Assembly (NCBI GenBank): GCA_948466335.1
Contig: CAOKAE010000002.1
Span: 28,029-92,028 of the forward strand
Source of the DNA: an uncultured Coriobacteriia bacterium
GTDB taxonomy: Bacteria > Actinomycetota > Coriobacteriia > Coriobacteriales > QAMH01
DNA length: 64,000 bases
Direction of reading: 5' to 3'
The notes under the pieces are model-generated. The model was given only the letters and a program-made list of their open reading frames with translations. It made no database searches and was not told the DNA's origin. Both the position numbers and the translations under genes were made by a program. Positions 3,969 through 51,549 of the stretch are shown piece by piece (positions within the stretch are counted from its first letter, which is position 1; each line of letters begins with the position of its first letter).

Positions 3969-6644
3969 TTACTTGGTGAGTTCCCAGTTGGACAGGTTCG
4001 CGTAGGCCTGATCCCACACGGTGTCGTGCTTGCCATCGTACTGGTCGACGGGAATCGCGTCATCGGTGCCGTCGGACGGATCGATGCAGGGGTACACCTT
4101 GCAGAGCAGACCGCGCGTGCACCAGGTAGCCGTCATCTGGTCGGCCTTGTCCGGGTCGTCGTCGACAAGCACGTTGCCGGCCGCGTCGAAGACGCCCTGG
4201 CTCCACGGCTCCTCGGCGGGAAGCTCGGGATACCACCAGCTGGGCGGAACCTGGACGACGCCCTCGGGGATGTCCCAGCCCACGTGGGCCTTCTGGCGGA
4301 TGCGGCCCATCGGGGTCTCGATCCAGATCCAGTCACCTTCCTTGATGTGCAGCTTGCGCGCATCGTTGAGGTGCATCCAGGTGTAGGGATAGGGCTCGAC
4401 CGTGCGCGTACCATGACCCGGCGTGCGGAACTCCGAATGGTACAGGGGGCTCACGCGGCCCGAGATTGTGAGACGCAGCGGATACTTCTTGGCCATCTCG
4501 GGGTCACCGAGCGGGGATTCCGGCTCGCGATAGACGGGAATCGGGTCGTAGTCGAGGTCCTCGAGCACCGAGGCGTAGATCTCGGCCTTGCGCGAATTGG
4601 TCGCGAATCCCATGATCTGCCCGTTGTCGAGGCGCTTGGCGTACTTGTAGTACTCGGTGGGATAGGGGAAGTACGTGCCCATGTTGACGGCCTTCTCGTA
4701 GTCCAGGTCGGGAACGCGCTCGACCGTGTACTCGATGGCCTGCTCGTAGGTCTCCCAGGGCCAGTCTTTCTCCTGGCCCATGGCGCAGCCCAGGGCGCGG
4801 AAGAAGTCGTAGTCGACGCGGCGCTCCTCGTAGGGCTCGACGCCACGATCGCCCACGGTGATGAAGTCCATGGAGTCCTCGGACGTGGTGCACAGCGGGC
4901 GCTCCATCCAGTCGCAGGCGGGCATGATGTAGTCGGCCAGCGCCGCCGTCGGCGTCTTCCAGTACTCGACCGAGACGAGCAGCTTGAGGTTCTTGAGGGC
5001 CTTGTACATCTTCTTGGTGTTGGGCGCCCAGGCAAGCGGATTGGATTCCCAGCAGATCATGGCCGTGATGGGATAGGGATCGCCATCGATCATGGCGTCC
5101 ATGACCAGCGAGGGCGAGCAGAGCATCTGATGCAGCATGGGACGGGGGACGCCGAACATCTTGCGATAGTTCTTGTCAATCATCTTGAAGCCCTTCCACG
5201 ACATGACGCGGAAGCGGTCGTTACCGATGAACTTGTCCTGGTTGGCCGGGTCCTGGAGCTCGGACAGCTCGAACTCGGCGTTGCGCACGGGATAGGTCTT
5301 CTCCTTGCCCACGGCGTTGGGGTCGCAGGGCATGCCGACGAACTCGCCGCCGGGATTATCGATGTTGCCGCACATGATGCGCAGGATGGTCTTGGCGATG
5401 CCGAAGCTCGAGGCGTTGGTGCCGTGCTGGTCACCACCGCCCAGACCCCAGATGATGCAGGCCGGGCCATTGGTGGCGTAGAGGTGCGCGGCGGCCTCGA
5501 TCTTGCGAACGGGCACGCCGGAAACCTTGGAGGCACGCTCGGGCGTGTACTCCTCCATGCGCTCGGCGATGGCGTCGAACACGGTCTTGCACTCGACCGT
5601 GGAGCCATCCTTGAGCGTGACGGTGTACGTGCCGTAGAGCTGGGCGTCGACGACGGTATCCTCGGAGGGCGTGTAGTAGCGGTTCTCGTCAGAGCACCAG
5701 CACAGCGGTGCACCCGTCTCGCCGTCCCACACCACGAAGTCCTCGTGCTTGCCGTCGGCCTCGACGTCGCTCGCACGCAGCAGCTTGCCCGTGTCGGCAC
5801 GAACCAGGAACACGGCGTTGGACCAGTACTTCAGGAAGTCCTCGTTGTAGAGCTTCTCGCGGATGACGTAGTGAATCCAGGAGAGGCAGATGATGCAGTC
5901 CGTGTTGGGATAGGGCTGCAGCCACTCGTCTGCCTGACCGGACTCGGTGATGCAGACGGGATCGACGACGATGAGCTGCGCGGGATCGGGCTCGTTGACG
6001 GTCGTGCGGCCGGAGATAACGCGCCAGAGCGGCGCCTCGGGCGCATAGGACTCCTGGCAGCGCTTGCCCCAGTTGACGATCGTGTGGGACTGCTGCGGGG
6101 AGGCCGGCATCATGGACTCGACGGGCCAACCGACCATGGCCATGTTGAGCGTGTAGTTCCAGCACCAGCAGATGGTGCCCGGGTCGATGACGTTGCCGGG
6201 ATTGCCCAGGAGGTTGGTGAAGCGGCTACGCGCCCACAGATGATCGGAGCGATACGTGCCCTCGGAGGCAACCAGCGTCTCGGGGCCGTATTCGTCGATG
6301 AGGGCCTGGAGCTTCTCGGCGATCTCCTTGATGGCCTGGTCGTAGGAAATCTGCTCCCACTTGTCCTCGCCACGCTCGCCCACGCGCTTGAGCGGATGGT
6401 TGATGCGCTTGGGATGGTAATGGAACTTGATCGCACGCTCGCCCTTCTTGCCCAGGCGGTTGCAGAGCACGGACCCTTCCGCGTCGTCGCCCCTGAGCTC
6501 GACGAGCCTGCCGGTCTTCGTGTCGACACCTGCGTAGATGCTGCAGTTCATGTGGCAGAAATGGCAGCGGGTGCGCCGCCAACGAACGCCGTTCTCATCG
6601 ACTGTGTTATTGGGCACGCCGGCCATAGATGGTGTATCTGACAT
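3969..6644 (-). CDS. molybdopterin (bis-MGD, DMSO-reductase-superfamily) oxidoreductase catalytic subunit, no twin-arginine signal
   Basis: About 891 aa. The start is set at MSDTPSMAG (ATG 6644) with GGGAGAG upstream. N-terminal FS0-type motif CHFCHMNC...C. No RR leader is seen by eye. The ORF-track start at 6740 adds a Cys-rich non-homologous extension. Confidence 0.85.
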   Translation of the reverse strand: MSDTPSMAGVPNNTVDENGVRWRRTRCHFCHMNCSIYAGVDTKTGRLVELRGDDAEGSVLCNRLGKKGERAIKFHYHPKRINHPLKRVGERGEDKWEQISYDQAIKEIAEKLQALIDEYGPETLVASEGTYRSDHLWARSRFTNLLGNPGNVIDPGTICWCWNYTLNMAMVGWPVESMMPASPQQSHTIVNWGKRCQESYAPEAPLWRVISGRTTVNEPDPAQLIVVDPVCITESGQADEWLQPYPNTDCIICLSWIHYVIREKLYNEDFLKYWSNAVFLVRADTGKLLRASDVEADGKHEDFVVWDGETGAPLCWCSDENRYYTPSEDTVVDAQLYGTYTVTLKDGSTVECKTVFDAIAERMEEYTPERASKVSGVPVRKIEAAAHLYATNGPACIIWGLGGGDQHGTNASSFGIAKTILRIMCGNIDNPGGEFVGMPCDPNAVGKEKTYPVRNAEFELSELQDPANQDKFIGNDRFRVMSWKGFKMIDKNYRKMFGVPRPMLHQMLCSPSLVMDAMIDGDPYPITAMICWESNPLAWAPNTKKMYKALKNLKLLVSVEYWKTPTAALADYIMPACDWMERPLCTTSEDSMDFITVGDRGVEPYEERRVDYDFFRALGCAMGQEKDWPWETYEQAIEYTVERVPDLDYEKAVNMGTYFPYPTEYYKYAKRLDNGQIMGFATNSRKAEIYASVLEDLDYDPIPVYREPESPLGDPEMAKKYPLRLTISGRVSPLYHSEFRTPGHGTRTVEPYPYTWMHLNDARKLHIKEGDWIWIETPMGRIRQKAHVGWDIPEGVVQVPPSWWYPELPAEEPWSQGVFDAAGNVLVDDDPDKADQMTATWCTRGLLCKVYPCIDPSDGTDDAIPVDQYDGKHDTVWDQAYANLSNWELTK

Positions 6645-6782
6645 GGCATGCTCTCCCTTCTCTTCTACTCTCCAGCCATTGACCTTGATGCGATGTCCTC
6701 GGCAGCACAAACTTTGGCAAGGTTGAACGCAGGCCCCCACATCACACCTGTTGAAAGCAGCATAAGAAGCATTCGTCCCGAG

Positions 6783-6842
6783 AAAAACGCCTTATCAATA
6801 CCAAATCATTGGGTAATGAACGGGGTACCGAAAGGGGTACCG
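6783..6842 (-). promoter_or_regulatory. conserved 60-nt upstream element with three GGGTA boxes at 12-bp spacing (candidate LAL-regulator operator/promoter)
   Basis: Colinear, gap-free match (42/60 by hand count) to 19676-19735. GGGTA occurs at 6811, 6823 and 6835. The element lies about 140-200 nt upstream of the Mo subunit start. Confidence 0.5.
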
Positions 6843-7134
6843 TTCCCAGTACGGGAATAGCTCTCTTTTGCACAAGACCGTGCCTTATCGAGAAATAACC
6901 CATCCCATTACCCTTTTTTTGGGACCGAAACAGACCTAACGCACAAAACGCCCGTCAACTAGCCTGATGTTGCCCTCGGAAATTCCGTGGGTTTGGCAAG
7001 GTGGGCTGCCCTTCATCGGCAGAAAGGCAACAACCGATCATCGTCGCGACAGTGTGCCGCGCGGCGGAATGCAGAAGGATGTTTCTCCCCAAGAAGCGAG
7101 AAGCCTTCTTTGCATTCTCGAGAGAGGGGATTAC

Positions 7135-8448
7135 ATGAGTGTAAATACGACGAGCATAAAGAACTATGGCATCATGGACCGCCAGCTAAATAACAAAGAA
7201 CGCTGGATTTGCTTCTGGGCCTTGTTCTTCTTCGGATTCATGTGCTCATTCAGCTTGTTCAAAGCTTCATCGGTCCTGCCGCAGATTGCGCAGGAACTCA
7301 GCATCGCTCCTGGCGACATCGGCATGGTCATGACGTGCTTCTCCATTGCCGGCCTCATCCTGGCGTATCCGGCCGCATGGATCATGCACACCATCGGCCT
7401 GAAGTCATCCGTCATGATTGCCGCCGTCATCTCCATTATCGGCACCGTGATGGGCTGCTTCGCACCCACTGCCGAGATATTCCTCGTTTCCCGTGCCGTC
7501 GAGGGCGTTGCCTACGGCCTCTTCTCGGTACAAGGCCCCAACCTGCTACCGCGCCTGTTCCCCCAGAAGAAGCTGGGTCTGGTCATGGGCGTCTGGTCGC
7601 TGTGGATGCCCGTCGGAAGCGTCTGCTCCTTCGTCATCACGCCGCTCATGTACGACGCCTTTGGTTGGCGTTCGGCCTGGTACGTGTGCGCCGCTGCCGA
7701 AATTCTGGCGACCATCGGCCTGTTCGTCTTCATGAAGCTGTCCGCCGTGCACGAGAACGAGATTGTCGACGGAGATGTCACGAAGAAGCGCAAGCCGACC
7801 AAGAACTTCTTCTTTGCCGCCATCATGATGCAGGTAGCATTCACCGGTTGGTGCTTCGTGTACCTGTCCAACATCAACGGCCTGTATCCCACCTTCCTTC
7901 AGGAGGTGAAGGGACTGTCCGTCTTCGACGCCTCGATGCTGCCGACCGTTCTGGCGCTTGTGACCATCGCCTTTGGCACGTTTGCCGGCATTCTTTCCGA
8001 CAAGCTCCAATCGCGCAAGACCTTCGCGGTCATCACATACGTCGTCGTCGCCATTGTCATGTTCACGATCGCCTACACCGATGACCCGAGCGACATGGTG
8101 AGCCCATGGGTGACGATGCTCATCATCGGCCTGTGCGGCAGCGTCCTGCCCATGGCAACCCGATCCATCGTGCCTGTCCTATGCCCCGACCCAAAGAAGA
8201 CTGACTATGCACTGGCCACTATGGCTTTCACCACCTGCGTCGCCCAGGTCTTCGGTGTCGTCGCAAGCCAATCGGTCGCGGCCCTGGGCTGGCACGGCAA
8301 CTCCGTGTTCGTGCTCGGCCCGGTTGCCCTCATAGCTGCGGCAATCGTGTTCTTCTGCGTCACGTCCGACAAGAAGGCCATAGCCGAGCTCAAGCATGCA
8401 GCCGACGCAGACGATGCGAATGTTCAGCCCGTCGAGGAGGCCAAGTAA
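7135..8448 (+). CDS. MFS transporter
   Basis: About 437 aa and multi-TM throughout. The start is set at MSVNTTSIK (ATG 7135) after AGAGAGGGGA. It is divergent from the Mo subunit. Confidence 0.8.
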   Translation: MSVNTTSIKNYGIMDRQLNNKERWICFWALFFFGFMCSFSLFKASSVLPQIAQELSIAPGDIGMVMTCFSIAGLILAYPAAWIMHTIGLKSSVMIAAVISIIGTVMGCFAPTAEIFLVSRAVEGVAYGLFSVQGPNLLPRLFPQKKLGLVMGVWSLWMPVGSVCSFVITPLMYDAFGWRSAWYVCAAAEILATIGLFVFMKLSAVHENEIVDGDVTKKRKPTKNFFFAAIMMQVAFTGWCFVYLSNINGLYPTFLQEVKGLSVFDASMLPTVLALVTIAFGTFAGILSDKLQSRKTFAVITYVVVAIVMFTIAYTDDPSDMVSPWVTMLIIGLCGSVLPMATRSIVPVLCPDPKKTDYALATMAFTTCVAQVFGVVASQSVAALGWHGNSVFVLGPVALIAAAIVFFCVTSDKKAIAELKHAADADDANVQPVEEAK

Positions 8449-8491
8449 GATCCAAAAGCTATGTGACGCATAGCCAAGCGAGTTTGACTAC

Positions 8492-8525
8492 GCGGGGCAC
8501 TCGGCTGCACAGCTGGGTGCCCCGC
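8492..8525. terminator. hairpin between convergent MFS and LuxR genes
   Basis: Arms GCGGGGCAC (8492-8500) and GTGCCCCGC (8517-8525). There is no strong U-tract. Confidence 0.4.
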
Positions 8526-8537
8526 ATCTTTGAGCCC

Positions 8538-11199
8538 CTACTTCATATCCTGCCTCAAGCTCCCAAGCGCCTCTGCCTTGTTGCGCACGCCCATCTTCAT
8601 ATACACGCTCGAAAGGTACTTCTTGGCGGTATTGATGCTGATGGAAAGCGTGTCGGCTATCTCGTTGCGCGAGAATCCCATATTGAGCAAACGCAAAACC
8701 TCGGCCTCGCGCTCCGTCAACATGTATTCATCCTGCAGGAAGGCCACGTCTTCACTGGCCGACTTATGCCTGCCGGAAGCCTCGGCGTCGAAGAACTGCA
8801 GTATTTCCTTGACATAGCCTCTCAGAAAGCCACCCAGCTTGCGCGTAGCCGCATACTCCCGCACGAGTTTGCTCATGGGCCGACCGCCGTTCAATATGGA
8901 GCGCATATAGCCTTGCTGGCGGGCAATGAAGATAAGGTCGTTGAAGGAGATGATGGACTTCGTCTCCTCGCCGGCATCGTGAAGGGCCAGGGTTTTCTCA
9001 ACGAGTGAGATGACAACGATGCGATTGAAATCGTGTTCCTTGGCACGCACGATTACCTCATCGAGCAAGAGGACCGCTTTGACATTGTCACCTTGCAACT
9101 TGGGGGCAAAAGCGTGAATGGTATCCAGCAGCAGCGTGCCAAGAATATCTCGCTCTTTCAGACGAGGGGCGAATTTCCTCTCGATACGTTGCACTTCTCT
9201 CACGTCTTCTCGATAGAGGGCAATCTGCGCCTGAAGAAAGTAAGCCGAAAGAAGCGCCTCGCGGGGAACGTCGCGATATTTTTCGCCTTGCAGTATTGCT
9301 TCGGTAATCACCTCGAACGCCTTGGACGATTCTCCCGATGACAGATACCAGAGGGCGTGTGCCGCCATTATGTCGAGATACAAATCGATATGCCGATAAT
9401 AGAAGAGGTCTTGCTTGGAAATGCGCAGCAGTTCGGAAACGTGTTCCGTCTCCGCCCGTTCCATCAAGATGCGCGCCAGCAAAGCGCAAGTCGCCCCGTA
9501 GATGGAAAAATCGGGAGGGCATTTCCTGATGAGCAGTTCGCATCTCTGCTCCGCTTTATCGTGTTCGCCGTAATAGTAGAGATTGACGGCATAGGAGTAT
9601 TCGTTATAGACGAGCTGGTGTATCGTCTGACTCACGCTCGCGCTCGCCTGCGCCTTGAGGTAGTACTCCATCGCCTGGTCATAATCACCGATACTGGAGT
9701 AAGCCTCGCCTTCCGATTGATTGATCATGCTCAACAGCGAAGGGCTTATGGGCCACTCTCCGCTCTGCAGCTCCTCGCAAAGACGAAGCGCCTCCTCTCC
9801 TTCACCGCGCATTGCCAAGTACTTCATTTCAAGGCACTTCATGGAAAAGACGAGCGCATCGGGACCGGCGTCGCCAAGTGCCTTCTCGTCTTTGGCGAGT
9901 TTCTTGAAAACATCCATGTAGATGTCGGCGTCTTCCAAACGGGCAAAGGTCACGCACGACCACGTTGCCATAAGGCACAGGAAAGGATTTCCCGGAATCG
10001 ACGCGGCGGGCACTCGACACATCCACATAAGCGAGTCATCCGATTTGTCGGGCCGGGAAAGGCCGCTTGTGATTTCCACAAGTCCTTCGATGTAATCCAA
10101 GTCTCCCGACATCATGAGATACTTCACGGCGTCATCGGAACGTCTGTTCTCGTGAAACCACTCGCTGGCCTTGAGGCAGATTCCGCGCAGCTCGCTCATG
10201 TCGACCTGGGCCAGGCCGCAGCGCAGCACATCGAGAAACATGGGGTGCAGCCTATACCACTCGTTCTCATAGTCGCAATTCAAGATAAACGCATTGGAAT
10301 CAAGCAGGCCATTGAAGAGCTCGACCACGTCGTCTGACTCGAATGCGAATGCGAGGAGCGAACGATTGAAGCTCTCGAACAGGGAGGCGCGCGTGAGAAA
10401 GGCGACGTCTTCCTGGGACAATCCCGAGAGGACGTTGCAGGAGAAGAAGTCGCGAATGAGATTGCTCTTCCCATTCACGAGTGGCTCTACGCCGAGCTTC
10501 CTGTTGAGCATGGCGGCCTGGCTGCGCAACTTGATGCCCTGGATCCATCCTTCAGTCCCGTCGTATATCGCATCGACGAGCTCGGCGGAAACGCCCTCGC
10601 CACAGATGCCCCGAACGATGCCTTCGCTCTCTGCACGACTGAACGCGAGATCGCTTAATTCAAACCCGATGTCACCATATTTGAAGGAGGCAAGCTTGAG
10701 TCCACCCGACAGCTTTCTCGTGCTTGCCACAAAATGATACTCGGGGGGAAGCAGAGAGCAGAGGCGAAGGAAGTCTTCTATGAGCGAAGACGACGTTATG
10801 CACTCCAGGTCGTCGATGCACACGAAACGCTTGCGGCCCGTCTCATCTCGAAGAGAGAACGCGAGGTCGGCTAGTTTCGCAACATCGCCTGCCACGGGTT
10901 CGGAGGCGGCGTTGAAGCCCCCCCCCGTCGACGAGGGCACATATCAGATGGCTCCAAAACCATTCGCCTTCGGAAAGGGCCGAATCGGCGGTGAGCCAGC
11001 TTACCGCATGTCCCTCTTGTCTGAGCCTATCGGCGAGCTCCCGCATCGCCGTCGTCTTTCCGTAGCCATTTGGAGCGTGCAGGAACGTGATGCGCTGTGA
11101 GACAGCCGCATGATGCAGATTGTCCATGAGGGGACGACTGGCAACGAGATTCTGTGGCAAGTCTGGTTCGATGAGCCGCGCTCGAACGAATTGATCCAT
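8538..11199 (-). pseudogene. LAL/MalT-like LuxR-family regulator interrupted by a +1 frameshift in a G9 run
   Basis: The N-terminal P-loop part (MDQFVRARL...HAPNGYGKTTAM..., frame of ORF 10843-11454, ATG 11199) and the TPR-like plus C-terminal LuxR HTH part (ORF 8538-10940) align end to end with the intact paralog 19739-22423. The frames meet at 10918-10926. Confidence 0.8.
10918..10926. repeat. C9/G9 homopolymer at the frameshift point
   Basis: Read directly: gaag-ccccccccc-gtcg. G8 would fuse ...ICALVDGGG with FNAASEPVAG.... Confidence 0.95.
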
Positions 11200-11344
11200 T
11201 GGTTGCCCCCAGTCTCCGCCATGGATGCCCTCTGCAATGCGCATGGAACAATGGGGCAAGCTTTGCCAGCAGCGATGCCCGCGCAGCACATTATACGCGC
11301 AAAGGGGAAGGCGAGAAGCCGTTCGCCTCCCCTCTCTCGCGATG

Positions 11345-18030: not shown

Positions 18031-19440
18031 CTATGCCAGACCCATGGCGGTGCAGACGAGGGGCAGGACGATGGAGACCATCAGGATGGCCGCGATGCTG
18101 GGAATCCAGCCCACCTTGAGCTCGTCAAAGGGCGAGAAGTACTTGCGTTCGCTTGCGTAGGCAACGTACACGCAGAGATCCAACGGCAGCAGGAACGCCG
18201 CGGAGGAGAACACCGCGCACATGAAGATGGCGGCGGTGACGTTGCCACCCAGGCTGATGACCAGGCCGCAGACGGGAATCGTGATCAGACCGGCAACGGC
18301 CGCACCGGCGGGAAGGATGTTGTGGATGACGCAGGCAAAGGCGGCGACGAGAATCATCACGACAACCACGGGCAGGCCCAGGAGAGGAGCAAAGGCCGTG
18401 TTGACCAGCCAGACCATGGCACCCGTCGCGATGAAGCCCGCGACGAAGCAGCCGACGGCCCAGTTGAGCATGACGACCGACCAGGGGCTTTCGTCACACC
18501 ACTTCTTGAAGGAAACGCACTTGAAGGGCGGAAGGAACATCAGGAACAGGGCGAAGAGACCGATGACCGTCATGTCGAGCTGCGGGACCCAGGAACCGGC
18601 AATCCACAGGCCCAGGGTCACGACGATGACGAGCATGCCCCAGATCTCGTCCTTGCCAAAGCCGGAGATCTCCGCGCGCTCCTTCTGGATGCGCTCGATG
18701 GCCTCGTCGCTGATGGGCTCGGGCTTGAAGATCTTGACGATGACGAACCAAGAAAGGGGCAGGAGGATGATGTTCATGATGATGCCCAGGACCATCCAGT
18801 TCGCGAACGTCACCGTGATGCCAAACGCCTGCTCGGCAAAGCCCATGGCAAGGATGTTCACGACGCTGCCGACGGGGGTGATCCAACCGCCGATGTAGGA
18901 CGCGAACGCGATGCCAAGCACGAGTGCCTTGGCCAAGTTGGACTTGTTGCCCCACGGGGTCTTGTTCTCGTCCAAAATCCTGTACGCGAACGGGAGCATG
19001 ACCAGAACGAGAACGAGGTCATCGATGATGAGCGAAAGGAGCGCCGTGGCGAGCATCAGGCCCGCGAGCACCTTCTTGGAATCGTTCTTGGCCCACTTCA
19101 GGATGAACGCGATGATGCGCAGCGAGATGCTGGAATACTGCACGAACAGGGCAAACGCGAAGCAGGGCAGGCAGACGATCATGGCCACGCTTACGCCGCT
19201 CATCCATGTCTCGTTCGAAGACAGGATTCCCATCAAGGGTACGGCGGCGGCAAAGGCCCACGCCGTCACCACGATGGGGATGGGCTCGCAGATCCACATG
19301 ACAACACAGGCGACCAGAATGCCCAGCAGCATCTTTCCCTCGAATGCAAGGCCTTCTGGAGTCGGAATCAGGAACGTGATGATGACGATGAGAATGGAAA
19401 TTGCGGTAATTCCCACTTTGAAAGGCAGTTTCTCCCTCAT
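18031..19440 (-). CDS. anion permease of the DASS/ArsB-NhaD (ion transporter) superfamily
   Basis: 469 aa and hydrophobic throughout with many TM helices. RBS is GAGGAGGG. The family call rests on overall pattern only. Confidence 0.6.
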   Translation of the reverse strand: MREKLPFKVGITAISILIVIITFLIPTPEGLAFEGKMLLGILVACVVMWICEPIPIVVTAWAFAAAVPLMGILSSNETWMSGVSVAMIVCLPCFAFALFVQYSSISLRIIAFILKWAKNDSKKVLAGLMLATALLSLIIDDLVLVLVMLPFAYRILDENKTPWGNKSNLAKALVLGIAFASYIGGWITPVGSVVNILAMGFAEQAFGITVTFANWMVLGIIMNIILLPLSWFVIVKIFKPEPISDEAIERIQKERAEISGFGKDEIWGMLVIVVTLGLWIAGSWVPQLDMTVIGLFALFLMFLPPFKCVSFKKWCDESPWSVVMLNWAVGCFVAGFIATGAMVWLVNTAFAPLLGLPVVVVMILVAAFACVIHNILPAGAAVAGLITIPVCGLVISLGGNVTAAIFMCAVFSSAAFLLPLDLCVYVAYASERKYFSPFDELKVGWIPSIAAILMVSIVLPLVCTAMGLA

Positions 19441-19675
19441 CTTTTCCCTCCTCTATAACCGAATTCAACAGATTCTTGGTGAGCACCCATAGCCAAGATC
19501 CTTCCTCACCAAACGCCTCTTACGGCACAAGCGACAGGTGATGCGGCGAAACCTGGCCGATGATCTCTCCCCTCCCCTCGGGGTGTCTCAGGCTTTCCGA
19601 AAGACGCATGGAGCACGTCCGGCAACCCGCTCCGATGCACGTCCACGGACGAGCATATAGAGCGGGCAGAGGAGC

Positions 19676-19735
19676 AAAAACGCCTTATCCGTACCAAAAG
19701 ACGGGATAAGCGCACGGGTAGTGTGCGGGGTACCG
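19676..19735 (-). promoter_or_regulatory. second copy of the 60-nt element with three phased GGG(A)TA boxes
   Basis: Contains AAAAACGCCTTATC..TACCAAA. Boxes end at TA 19707-08, 19719-20 and 19731-32. It lies between the LuxR stop (19739) and the permease start (19440). Confidence 0.5.
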
Positions 19736-19738
19736 CCA

Positions 19739-22423
19739 CTACCCACACCAGACATCCGCATCCTGGTTCGCGCCCCGCATCAATCCCTCGAGCGCTTCGG
19801 CCTTGTTGCGGGCGCCCATCTTGGCGTAGATGTTGGAGAGGTGCTTCTTTGCCGTGTTGATGCTGATGGAGAGCGTCTCGGCAATCTCGTTGCGCGAGAG
19901 GCCCATGTTGAGCAAGCGCAGCACCTCCACCTCGCGAGTGGTGAGCATGTATTCGCTTTCCAGGAAAGCGGCGTTCTCGTCGGCGGCCTCGCGTTTGCCA
20001 AGGCCCTCCGCCTCGAAGCGCAGCAGGATGTCCTTCACGTACGTTCGCAAGGTGCCGCCCAGCCTTCTCGTCGTCGAGTACTCGCGCAACAGTTGCCTCA
20101 TGGGTGCCCCCGCATTGAGGATCGTGCGCATGAACCCACGCAGGCGGGCGATGCGGATGAGCTCGTTGAGGGAGGTGATGGCCTGGACCTTCTCGCCCAT
20201 GCCGTCGAGGATGAGGGTCTTCTCCACCAGCGCGATCACGACCATGCGATTGAAGTCGCGTTCGAGCGCGCGCTCGATCATGTCATCGAGCAGCTTCACG
20301 GCCTCGCGCTGGCAGCCCTGCAGACGTAGGGCGAAGGCGTGGATGGCATCCAGCAGCAATGCGCTGAAGGCGTCCTGCTCCTTCAGGTGCAGGGCGAACT
20401 TGTTTTCCACGAGCTGCATTTCGTTGAGGTCCCCGCGATGCAGGGCGATCTGCGCCTGGAGGAAATAGGCGGAAAGCAGCGCCGCACGGGGGATGTCGCG
20501 ATACTTCTCCCCCTGCAAGACGGCTTCGGTGACCACCTCGAAGGCCCTGGAGGAGTCTCCCGAGGCAAGGTGCCAGACGGCGTGGGCCGTCATTATGTCC
20601 AGATACAGGTCTATGTGCCGATAATAGGAGAGCTCCCTCTCGGAGAGCCTGAGCAGGTTTGGCACACGCTCCACGTCGGCGCGCTCTATCAGGATGCGCG
20701 CGAGAAGTGCGCAGGTCGCCCCGTAGATGGCAAAGTCGGGAGGGCATTTCTTGAGAAGGCTCTCGCAGCTGCGTTCGGCCTTGTCGTGTTCGCCGCAATA
20801 GTAGAGGTTCACCGCATAGGTGTACTCGTTGAAGACGAGCTGGTGAACCGTCTGGTCAACGGTCGCGCTTGCCTGCCCCTTCAGGTAGTAATCCCTCGCC
20901 TGCGTGTAATCACCGATATACGAGCATGCCTCGCCCTGCGATTGGTTGATCATACTGAGCAGCGATGAGGTGATGGGCCAGCTTCCGTCCTGCAGCTCCT
21001 CACATAGGGCCAGTGCCTGCTCGCCCTCGCCCTGCATGGCAAGGTACTTCATGGAAAGGCACTTCATGGAAAACGAGGCGACTTCGGAAGAGATCGCACC
21101 TGCCGCGATCTCCCTCTCCATGAGCGTCTCGAGAATGCCTATCCACAGGTCGGCGTCCTCGAGACGGGCAAAGGTCACGCACGACCAGACCGCTATGAGG
21201 CACAGGAGAGGAGAATCGGGAATCGACGCGGCGGGGACCCTGCACAACCAGGCAAAGGAATCCATGGACTTGTCACGACGCGTGAGCCCGCTCGTGGCCT
21301 CCACGAGCCCCTCGACGTAGTCAAGGTCCCCCGACATGCTCAGGTACTTGACGGCCTCGTTGGGGTATCCGTTGTCGTGAAACCACTCCCCCGCGCTCAG
21401 GCAGAGGCTGCGAAGCTCGCTCGTGTCGATGCGCTTCAACTCGTAGCGCAACATGTCCTGGAACATGGGATGCAGCCTATACCACTCGTCCTCGTAATCG
21501 CAGTTCAGGATGAACGCGTTGGAAACCAGCAACCGATCGAACCTTTCCACGGCGCCGTTCGAGCCGAGTATGAAGGAGAGGAGCGGCCGGTTGACCTTCT
21601 CGAACAACGAGACGCGAATGAGAAAATCGACGTCCTCCTGGGAAAGCCCGGAGAGGATGTTGCAGGTGAAGTAGTCGCGTATCAGGCTGTTCTTCCCGTT
21701 GATGGGACTTTCGACGATGCCCAGTCTCTCGTTGCGCGCCATGGCCTGGGCCCTCAGCTTCACACCCTGAATCCATCCCTCGGTGTCACGGTATACCTCG
21801 TCGGCAGACCCATCGTCGAGGTCCGCGCCGCAGACATCCCGAATGACCTCCTCGGCCTGGTCGCGCGTGAATATGAAGTCCCGTAGCTCGAACACGCGCT
21901 CACCGTATCTGAAAGCCGCTGTCTTCAGGCTGTCCAGAAACTCTCGCGTGCTCACCACGAAATGGTATTCGGGGGGAACCTCGAAGCAGAAACGGAGAAA
22001 GTCATCGATAAGGGAGAGGGACGTTATCCGGTCAATACCATCGAGAAAGACGAAATGCTCGGTGTCGGCCCGATGCCGAAACAGGATGTCCGCGAGCTGC
22101 GCTCCATCATGCGCGACTTCTTCCGTCCCCGAATCCAGGCAGGGCACGCTCTCGCTCAGCGAGACATGGAGGTGTCCCCAAAACTGCTCCGGTTCGGACA
22201 ATGGCGTGTCGAGGGCAAGCCAGCTCGTGCCCTGGCCATCCTGTCTCAACGCCCGGGCGAGTTCGTCCATGGCTATGGTCTTGCCATAACCGCTCGGCGC
22301 GTAGAGAAAGGTCACGCGCTGGACATGGGCCACACGCCTCATGTCATCAATCATGGGACGGCCTGCCACGAGATTGGGCGGCAGCGCTGGCTCGATGAGC
22401 CTTGCTCGAACGATCTGATCCAC
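19739..22423 (-). CDS. LAL/MalT-like LuxR-family transcriptional regulator (intact)
   Basis: 894 aa. N-terminal P-loop (YAPSGYGKTIAM), long helical/TPR-like middle and C-terminal LuxR HTH (LTTREVEVLRLLNMGLSRNEIAETLSISINTAKKHLSNIYAKMG). Confidence 0.9.
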   Translation of the reverse strand: MDQIVRARLIEPALPPNLVAGRPMIDDMRRVAHVQRVTFLYAPSGYGKTIAMDELARALRQDGQGTSWLALDTPLSEPEQFWGHLHVSLSESVPCLDSGTEEVAHDGAQLADILFRHRADTEHFVFLDGIDRITSLSLIDDFLRFCFEVPPEYHFVVSTREFLDSLKTAAFRYGERVFELRDFIFTRDQAEEVIRDVCGADLDDGSADEVYRDTEGWIQGVKLRAQAMARNERLGIVESPINGKNSLIRDYFTCNILSGLSQEDVDFLIRVSLFEKVNRPLLSFILGSNGAVERFDRLLVSNAFILNCDYEDEWYRLHPMFQDMLRYELKRIDTSELRSLCLSAGEWFHDNGYPNEAVKYLSMSGDLDYVEGLVEATSGLTRRDKSMDSFAWLCRVPAASIPDSPLLCLIAVWSCVTFARLEDADLWIGILETLMEREIAAGAISSEVASFSMKCLSMKYLAMQGEGEQALALCEELQDGSWPITSSLLSMINQSQGEACSYIGDYTQARDYYLKGQASATVDQTVHQLVFNEYTYAVNLYYCGEHDKAERSCESLLKKCPPDFAIYGATCALLARILIERADVERVPNLLRLSERELSYYRHIDLYLDIMTAHAVWHLASGDSSRAFEVVTEAVLQGEKYRDIPRAALLSAYFLQAQIALHRGDLNEMQLVENKFALHLKEQDAFSALLLDAIHAFALRLQGCQREAVKLLDDMIERALERDFNRMVVIALVEKTLILDGMGEKVQAITSLNELIRIARLRGFMRTILNAGAPMRQLLREYSTTRRLGGTLRTYVKDILLRFEAEGLGKREAADENAAFLESEYMLTTREVEVLRLLNMGLSRNEIAETLSISINTAKKHLSNIYAKMGARNKAEALEGLMRGANQDADVWCG

Positions 22424-22514
22424 CAGTTACCCCTTCCCCCAGGGTTTTGGGTGAACGCGCACGATAACCTCATTAAAACTATCAGGCTATGCGATGATAA
22501 AAAGCATCCGTAAC

Positions 22515-22545
22515 GGATTATTTTCGAGGGTAATGCAAAGGGTAA
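22515..22545 (-). promoter_or_regulatory. phased GGATTA/GGGTAA/GGGTAA boxes upstream of the intact LAL regulator
   Basis: TA dinucleotides at 22519-20, 22531-32 and 22543-44, giving 12-bp spacing. The site is about 90-120 nt upstream of ATG 22423. Confidence 0.35.
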
Positions 22546-28065: not shown

Positions 28066-28143
28066 GGTGGGTATAGCGCAGTTGGTTAGCGCGCCAGATT
28101 GTGGCTCTGGAGGTCGAGGGTTCGAATCCCTTTACCCACCCCA
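28066..28143 (+). tRNA. tRNA-His (GTG)
   Basis: Hand-folded cloverleaf. Encoded G-1, acceptor GTGGGTA/TACCCAC, anticodon loop TTGTGGC, T-loop GGTTCGAATCC and encoded CCA. Confidence 0.9.
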
Positions 28144-28195: not shown

Positions 28196-28271
<76 letters not shown>

Positions 28272-33513: not shown

Positions 33514-33725
33514 GCAACCAGCTCCTTCTCGCGCATGTAAGAGATGAGGTCATCCATCAGATAGTCCTTGCCGAAGGTGTGGAGGACATCATAGGAGGGA
33601 ACGATGTACTCGTAGAGAATCCCGCTCTCCTCGAGAAGATGGTAGACCGCGCGCTGCGACAAACCGAGGCGCTCGGAGAGGTTCCCTATGCAATACGTAA
33701 CGAACTCAATCTCTGCAGCACCCAT
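33510..33725 (-). CDS. DUF3791-like small protein, copy a
   Basis: 71 aa, MGAAEIEFVTYCIGNLSERLGLSQRAVYHLLEESGIL (HTH-like). Confidence 0.6.
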   Translation of the reverse strand: MGAAEIEFVTYCIGNLSERLGLSQRAVYHLLEESGILYEYIVPSYDVLHTFGKDYLMDDLISYMREKELVA

Positions 33726-33928
33726 GGGCTGCTCCGTTCTTTTCGACTTATACTGCCACTGCCAGCGAGGTCACTACCCCTCACCAACAGGCTCGCAGCG
33801 ATGAACCAGCTCAATTCTAGCAAGTTTCCTCATGCGGCAAAGCGTCATGTTTGCAACGAAAAGGTCAGGAAGCGCCTCCACATGGGCTTCTCTGTCTTTG
33901 CCGATTAAACCAACGGATACATAATCCG

Positions 33929-51257: not shown

Positions 51258-51309
51258 AAGAAAAACCCTCCCTTGCAAAACAAAACAGCGCTGCCAGAGA
51301 AGGTCAAAA

Positions 51310-51395
51310 ATGTGCCTCTGTCCTTTTGCCTGAGAGTTTCGACCCGTGCGGGTCTTGCACCTTCGGCACTCATTTAAGAGATTCTCCAGAGTTTT
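51310..51395 (-). ncRNA. glycine riboswitch aptamer (single recognisable aptamer)
   Basis: Minus strand: CUCUGGAGA...GCCGAAGGUGCAA-GACCCGCACGGGUC-...CUCAGGCAAAAGGACAGAG. P1 strands are at 51387-51391 and 51316-51320. It lies in the 5' UTR of an AGCS gene, the classic context. Confidence 0.75.
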
Positions 51396-51549
51396 CTCCA
51401 CTCCCGGTCTCGCGCTCAAGCGGGATTCCGGAAGCTTCATCGAAAAACACAGCGGCGAGATTATCGTGCAACTCTTGCGTCCATGCAAGGAGTTTTTTCA
51501 TCTGGCTCGATTATCATGGGGGCATTATCCGGACGAACGATTGGCTGCC

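Follow-up and report, generated by a model that had tools for sequence, protein, structure and literature searches.

Head-to-tail TACCC boxes upstream of a probable -10 hexamer: candidate docking sites for a MalT-like LAL regulator in a Coriobacteriia molybdoenzyme cluster

The locus described here raises the question of why two molybdoenzyme operons of an uncultured Coriobacteriia bacterium should carry closely similar 60-nt elements upstream, and which protein would read them. The window (the whole 64,000-nt stretch of DNA that was analysed) belongs to a genome of 1.89 Mb in 35 contigs, with 61.7% G+C. A sequence-only reading of the window had matched positions 6783-6842 to positions 19676-19735 and had proposed three phased boxes in each as the signature of a MalT-type LAL activator regulon, comprising two operons and two paralogous regulators. 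On the minus strand, the gene for LAL-B (22423-19739) is followed by element B and then by genes for a DASS/CitMHS permease (19440-18031), an amidase (17908-16427), the molybdoenzyme Mo-B (16361-13749), an Fe-S protein (13746-12973), a second amidase (12871-11345) and LAL-A (11198-8538, split by a frameshift). An MFS permease gene (plus strand, starting at 7135) sits between LAL-A and element A, after which the next gene is that of a second molybdoenzyme, Mo-A (6644-3969, minus strand). The published urolithin cluster was considered as a match to this cluster and rejected (it differs, and is without an amidase). Elsewhere in the window, an Rfam scan marked a glycine riboswitch aptamer (51308-51399, minus strand, 61 bits) and two tRNA genes (28067-28140 and 28196-28268, plus strand).

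Recomputing the alignment of the two elements gave the same gapless match, identical at 42 of 60 positions, and the shared opening AAAAACGCCTTATC-NN-TACCAAA is present in both. In gene sense (the minus strand in each case) copy A reads CGGTACCCCTTTCGGTACCCCGTTCATTACCCAATGATTTGGTATTGATAAGGCGTTTTT and copy B reads CGGTACCCCGCACACTACCCGTGCGCTTATCCCGTCTTTTGGTACGGATAAGGCGTTTTT; each holds three TA(C/T)CC boxes arranged head-to-tail as direct repeats, with a period of exactly 12 bp, as the earlier reading had described. In the promoter region of Mo-A (P_A), all three boxes are TACCC: distal at 6835-6839 (approximately -87 to -83), middle at 6823-6827 (approximately -75 to -71, an invariant column block in the alignment of promoter versions) and proximal at 6811-6815 (approximately -63 to -59, with a pairwise identity of 0.90 across versions). 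In the region upstream of the permease operon (P_B), TACCC boxes at 19728-19732 (distal) and 19716-19720 (middle) are followed by a proximal TATCC at 19704-19708, a variant also found in orthologues; all six boxes lie on the minus strand.

Orthologous promoters, which we return to below, trim this description in two respects. The spacing of exactly 12 bp holds in both elements of the window, whereas orthologues space their boxes at 12 or 13 bp, with a single instance of 11. The GGGGTACC flavour of the boxes, which creates a palindromic GGTACC, is confined to this genome; what the promoters compared have in common is only (T/C/A)A(C/T)CC. Since the GGTACC palindromes are not conserved, we describe the arrays as direct repeats of an asymmetric core. 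The opening block AAAAACGCCTTATC (ATAAGGCGTTTTT in gene sense) is best placed not as a further box but as a -35-proximal part of the promoter: relative to the -10 hexamer inferred below it spans approximately -43 to -31, overlapping the place of a -35 hexamer. The corresponding conserved blocks are GATAAGGCGTTTTT at P_A (6783-6796, minus strand, approximately -44 to -31, pairwise identity 0.88 within the genus) and GGATAAGGCGTTTTT at P_B (19676-19690, minus strand). The ATAAGGCGTTTTT block, which is absent from the two additional promoters P_MFS and P_LAL introduced below, may serve as a promoter-proximal contact for the activator or for RNA polymerase. A reading of GGATAAGG as a strictly conserved inverted box was dropped, two orthologous loci (L013 and L006) being without its GG.

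The whole-genome motif search that had been suggested as a check on the elements shows that the motif does not occur at random frequency, and that non-coding three-box arrays are found only in this cluster. The block AAAAACGCCTTATC occurs twice in the 1.89-Mb genome, both times in the elements. Three TAYCC boxes separated by 7 nt occur at four loci, namely the two elements and two perfect 12-nt tandem repeats inside long ORFs (TACCCTGCTCGA in four copies at C8:47578-47618 and TACCCCGACATT in three copies at C29:1788-1816), which mimic a box array and look like coding repeats. The same triple array was found nowhere in the genome when its period was set to 10, 11, 13 or 14 bp (5, 6, 8 or 9 nt between boxes), and the spacings between TACCC pairs genome-wide peak at 12 bp (9 pairs) and 24 bp (7 pairs), with 0-3 pairs elsewhere. 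When the array was relaxed to three [TCA]A[CT]CC boxes at 11-13 bp the genome yielded 11 matches; outside long ORFs, those of TACCC type were the two elements plus one more, which lies upstream of LAL-B. On contig C12 the 10-mer TAAGGCGTTT (once as TAAGGTGTTT) occurs in four copies within 12 kb (18935, 21974, 22011 and 30566), with neither TACCC boxes nor a TAnnnT at the matching offset.

We sought relatives of the elements in other genomes. BLAST of a 111-nt region against 60 relatives reported only the window's own copy, missing even the paralogous one; as nucleotide BLAST was thus uninformative, the comparison was moved to protein-anchored loci, for which orthologues of Mo-A, the permease and LAL-B were located in approximately 300 genomes of the same order and their upstream regions read. 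Within the genus the gene order is EamA, a 275-aa ORF, LAL, P_B, permease, amidase, Mo-B, FeS, amidase, P_A, Mo-A, ferredoxin, DegV and ABC-F, with a single LAL gene and with the second amidase followed directly by P_A and Mo-A. Comparison of 6645-11344 with these loci (L062-L068) identifies LAL-A, the MFS gene and the window's own type of P_A as an inserted cassette, which separates the second amidase from Mo-A. In G001, the closest relative, whose Mo-A is 100% identical over the recovered parts (residues 1-650 and 652-891), P_A takes the amidase-adjacent form and no LAL-A/MFS cassette occupies this place; homology resumes only approximately 24 nt before the ATG. A search for relatives of the MFS gene in genome and metagenome contigs, made to find orthologues of element A in its own form, produced nothing useful.

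Despite these rearrangements, every version of P_A and P_B keeps two to three (T/C)A(C/T)CC boxes at 12-13 bp, and the genes upstream of the promoters differ between species. Aligning the nine distinct promoter versions of the genus on the proximal box gives a mean pairwise identity of 0.87-0.90 in the box columns, compared with 0.33-0.35 in the spacers and 0.27 in the flanks. In another family (loci L009/L080 on contig C14 of G110, and L011/L081 of G175) a small, zinc-ribbon-like and proline-rich ORF lies between LAL and Mo-A, and has a TACCC array of its own with a -10 hexamer after 46 nt.

The same comparison points to where transcription would begin. In 19 of 19 distinct versions of the target promoters, drawn from two families, the proximal box is followed at exactly 46 nt by a TAnnnT hexamer; TAnnnT has a genome-wide frequency of 0.0031 per position. 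The hexamers found at this distance are TATGCT (in the window), TAGTCT, TAGGCT, TAACCT, TATCCT, TAGAGT, TAAAGT and TATTCT, and the 19 versions include two arrays per genome from the other family, in which LAL is 40% identical and the stretch between box and hexamer does not align. Within the window, TATGCT is the sole coding-strand TAnnnT in either intergenic region (322 nt for P_A, 298 nt for P_B). This fixed spacing, together with the lack of a competing hexamer, led us to take TATGCT as the probable -10 of both promoters: at P_A it occupies 6759-6764 (minus strand), with a predicted start near 6752 and the Mo-A start codon at 6644, and at P_B it occupies 19652-19657 (minus strand), with a predicted start near 19645 and the permease start codon at 19440. 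Counted from these assignments, the boxes would be centred near -61, -73 and -85. The earlier reading had placed the regulon signature inside the 60-nt element; the boxes do lie there, but the probable -10 lies outside it, 46 nt downstream of the proximal box.

A consensus scan of three promoter regions found no complete sigma-70-type promoter, which fits activator dependence. Two other assignments were considered and rejected. Taking GATAAG as the -10, which would put a box inside the -35/-10 spacer, requires a poor hexamer (with G at -7) that is TTTAGG in orthologues, whereas the TAnnnT at 46 nt occurs in all versions compared; a sigma-54 reading of TTGGTA...GGC founders on the loss of the GG from P_A orthologues and on LAL not being an enhancer-binding protein. 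The predicted leader of the permease operon (19441-19651) would be approximately 205 nt long and includes GAGGGGAGGGGAGAG, which is rich in purines; orthologues of the same genus preserve the leader length, with 250 nt from ATAAGG to ATG in all.

The boxes and their distance to the hexamer can be joined into one composite pattern (two boxes, 46 nt, TAnnnT), which has five matches in the genome, four of them in this cluster: at P_A (6759-6827, minus strand), at P_B (19652-19720, minus strand), upstream of LAL-B (P_LAL, 22476-22544, minus strand) and upstream of the MFS permease gene (P_MFS, 6897-6965, plus strand). The fifth lies outside it (C9:257-325). Control patterns with the other spacings that we tried gave 0-2 matches, with the exception of a spacing of 33 nt, which gave three, P_LAL included. 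The proposed regulon of two operons therefore retains P_A and P_B but has to be widened, as four promoters share the grammar.

At P_LAL, the array (22504-22544, minus strand) consists of TACCC at 22540-22544, TACCC at 22528-22532 and AATCC at 22515-22519. This proximal AATCC is followed, after 5 nt, by GGATGC at 22504-22509, which ends approximately 35 nt before the predicted start. The probable -10, TAGTTT (22476-22481, minus strand), is separated from the proximal box by 33 nt and from the middle box by 46 nt, giving a predicted start near 22469 for a gene whose start codon is at 22423. Five species keep three to four boxes, with a period of 12-13 bp, upstream of the LAL gene; the hexamer, seen at P_LAL only, is GGATGA in sister species and GGATGC in this genome and its closest relative. 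An alternative start for P_LAL is given by a TATCAT/TATTAT, 15 nt downstream of the proximal box. At P_MFS, AACCC (6897-6901) and TACCC (6909-6913) face the MFS permease gene on the plus strand and a degenerate TATCG occupies 6886-6890; the probable -10, TAGCCT (6960-6965, plus strand), follows TACCC after 46 nt, with a predicted start near 6972 and the gene starting at the ATG at 7135 and not at 6967. The orthologous MFS promoter of another genome (G005) reads CACCC-N8-AACCC-N46-TAAGTT, and the promoter divergent from that MFS gene reads CACCC-N15-ATAAGGTGTTTG, with TAATTT after 46 nt. An inverted repeat, GTTCCCAGTACGGGAAT, occupies 6842-6858 amid the divergent P_A/P_MFS region, just before the distal box of element A when read in gene sense; it may be a separate operator or have no function.

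Which protein might occupy these boxes? LAL-B (minus strand, 19739-22423) is intact at 894 aa, and comprises a P-loop (APSGYGKT), a MalT-like TPR region and a LuxR-type HTH (Pfam TPR_MalT, 6.2e-16; GerE, 1.7e-14; AAA_22). It matches the NCBIfam MalT model NF003420 over residues 5-531 (E 1.5e-54), with a score of 185 bits against an equivalog cutoff of 537, and we accordingly describe it as a full-length MalT homologue and not as a MalT orthologue. Its C-terminal 83 aa match the structures of VpsT, VraR, GerE and NarL (E 7e-9 to 8.6e-5). LAL-A is 64% identical to LAL-B and has the recognition helix NTAKKYLSSVY, compared with NTAKKHLSNIY in LAL-B; a frameshift in a G9 run near 10918-10926 (coding strand) divides it into an N-terminus read from the ATG at 11198 and a remainder reaching 8538, a split that could be an assembly error, phase variation or a pseudogene. 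This comparison amends the idea of two paralogous regulators serving two molybdoenzyme promoters: sister species run both promoters with one LAL, and LAL-A is a frameshifted, lineage-specific insertion.

Across relatives, every one of the 12 loci with a LAL at least 40% identical to LAL-B (two families) has arrays, and none of the 18 loci with a LAL at most 35% identical does, a contrast drawn from related genomes and so confounded by phylogeny. The array-associated LALs share the helix NTAKKHL(S/A)NIY, whereas most other LALs have NTVK(T/S)H. In G005, the MFS protein (85% identical) is encoded next to a different LAL (35% identical) that has the same NTAKKHL helix. In another genome (G298), Mo-A is 81% identical and lies beside a different LAL (31% identity, helix NTAKHHV); there (L012/L082, intergenic region of C11 at approximately 33567-33817) two copies each of ATATAGCCCTTTT and ATGGCACC stand in place of the TACCC boxes, as though the operator had been exchanged along with the regulator.

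In our assessment it is probable that the two elements are the upstream halves of LAL-B-activated promoters, built from the boxes, the conserved block and a TAnnnT at 46 bp, and the TACCC boxes are most likely docking sites for the adjoining, MalT-like LAL-B. On this model LAL-B would bind ATP and an inducer, probably an aromatic substrate imported by the permeases of the cluster, and would then multimerise, its C-terminal LuxR-type HTH domains filling successive boxes cooperatively; the bound oligomer would bring RNA polymerase to promoters in which no -35 hexamer is evident. Four units would be driven in this way: Mo-A with its ferredoxin, the permease-amidase-Mo-B-FeS-amidase operon, the MFS permease gene and the LAL-B gene itself, the last amounting to positive autoregulation. 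The MalT-type LAL activator regulon put forward by the sequence-only reading thus persists in outline, favoured by arrays confined to the cluster, boxes conserved amid drifting spacers, co-occurrence with a LAL clade, an array at the LAL gene and promoters without an evident -35, and is amended to one LAL in the relatives and four promoters.

The boxes might instead be operators of a DNA-binding protein encoded elsewhere, such as a direct-repeat response regulator, or LAL might act on them as a repressor. OmpR/PhoB-type regulators also use direct repeats at about one helical turn, and an HTH alone does not reveal specificity; however, no regulator gene other than LAL was recognised in the syntenic cluster of the sister species, the arrays track its clade, and one of them lies upstream of the LAL gene itself. 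As for repression, boxes predicted to lie at -61 to -85, in promoters where no -35 is evident, would be placed for activation and not for occlusion of RNA polymerase. We judge either variant unlikely, and prefer activation by LAL-B.

Less probable still are two readings that do without a site array. Were the elements transcribed cis-regulatory RNAs (a leader or riboswitch, for instance of Moco type) or intrinsic terminators of the upstream genes, one could point to a CUUAUCC...GGAUAAG hairpin that copy B can form directly after the LAL-B stop codon, followed by GCGUUUUU, and to the folding of the 111-nt contexts with z-scores of -2.2 to -2.4. Yet the two copies fold differently, copy B on its own has z = -0.17, and both intergenic regions are without an Rfam match at the gathering threshold (only noise appears at E up to 10). 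In B_G010, an orthologue, TTTAGGG stands in place of GGATAAGG and breaks the hairpin, and a terminator assignment was rejected, the hairpin not being conserved; conservation follows 5-nt boxes at a fixed period and not paired columns, and the sole TAnnnT lies downstream of the element. We put an equally small weight on the proposal that the similarity is a mere remnant of recent duplication or gene conversion between the promoters, devoid of site-array function. Element A carries the B-type spacer TTTGGTA, which P_A orthologues of other species lack, and belongs to the inserted LAL-A/MFS cassette, so that part of the 42/60 identity probably does reflect shared ancestry. Against this as the whole account, unrelated versions, including those of another family, keep the boxes and the 46-nt ruler while the rest diverges, and the same grammar recurs at P_LAL and P_MFS, which cannot be aligned with elements A and B.

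Such an operator-promoter grammar, if correct, would limit the regulon in this genome to four promoters, would imply that the regulator gene is positively autoregulated and would offer compact promoter parts for reporter assays that could reveal the inducer, and hence the substrate of the amidase/molybdoenzyme pathway. It is possible, although we hold this only tentatively, that the arrangement represents a rigid promoter grammar of one Coriobacteriia LAL clade, with head-to-tail boxes at 12-13 bp locked 46 bp from the -10 across two families while the intervening sequence is free to change. If so, both the pitch and the docking geometry of a STAND/LAL oligomer on DNA could be read from the non-helical period of 12-13 bp and from the fixed ruler, and the four-promoter signature would provide an inducible reporter for finding the dietary or host aromatic substrate of this pathway; gut Coriobacteriia have many substrate-induced molybdoenzyme clusters.

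Among the closest known systems are the catechol dehydroxylase operons of Eggerthella lenta, whose LuxR-type regulators have 10-12 TM segments (Dong et al, 2022, PMC9734109); no operator motif or transcription start is described for them in that paper. Both cases place LuxR-HTH regulators beside substrate-induced molybdoenzyme genes in gut Coriobacteriia, but theirs are membrane sensors and not LAL/STAND proteins. In operators of the NarL/GerE/DosR type, LuxR-family HTH dimers bind inverted repeats, the NarL heptamer being TACYYMT in a 7-2-7 arrangement. LAL-B shares this HTH fold and the copy A box TACCCCT fits the NarL heptamer, but the boxes here run head-to-tail and the regulator is a STAND ATPase, not a response regulator; inverted half-site pairs of the kind bound by a NarL/GerE dimer were not found in the promoters compared, GGTACC palindromes occurring only in the copies of this genome.

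A further system is the MalT (LAL) of Actinoplanes sp. SE50/110, which binds TCATCC-N5-GGATGA with the 3' end of the motif 34.4 +/- 1.0 nt from the transcription start, overlapping the -35, and which activates a local, non-maltose gene region (PMC7567727). Both regulators are actinobacterial LALs with a half-site of xxA(T/C)CC type, and P_LAL offers a comparable (T/A)A(C/T)CC-N5-GGATG(A/C) ending approximately 35 nt before its predicted start; P_A, P_B and P_MFS differ in having direct-repeat rows further upstream, the palindrome-like pair being seen only at P_LAL.

The MalT-dependent promoters of the E. coli/Klebsiella maltose regulons bear on the mechanism. Once it has bound inducer and ATP, MalT multimerises; it then occupies arrays of three to four MalT boxes in a cooperative manner and brings in RNA polymerase. 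Four MalT binding sites are present in malPp800, as in pulAp, and DNA runs along the outside of open, ring-like MalT oligomers (PMC4381067; PMC10427625). The E. coli MalT box is GGGGA(T/G)GAGG, with the core GGA(T/G)GA (PMC7567727). As there, the regulator here belongs to the STAND/LAL proteins, combining a P-loop NOD with a MalT-type TPR sensor and a LuxR HTH, and the promoters have three to four asymmetric boxes, a subset of them direct repeats, and apparently no usable -35; in mechanism we would regard the cluster as one more case of MalT-type activation, introducing no new principle. The cores differ, (T/C/A)A(C/T)CC here against the reverse-complement TC(A/C)TCC, with only the A(T/C)CC part in common, as does the layout, with its 12-13-bp period, boxes all upstream of approximately -59 and a strict 46 bp to the probable -10, and the targets are molybdoenzymes, amidases and permeases in place of maltodextrin genes.
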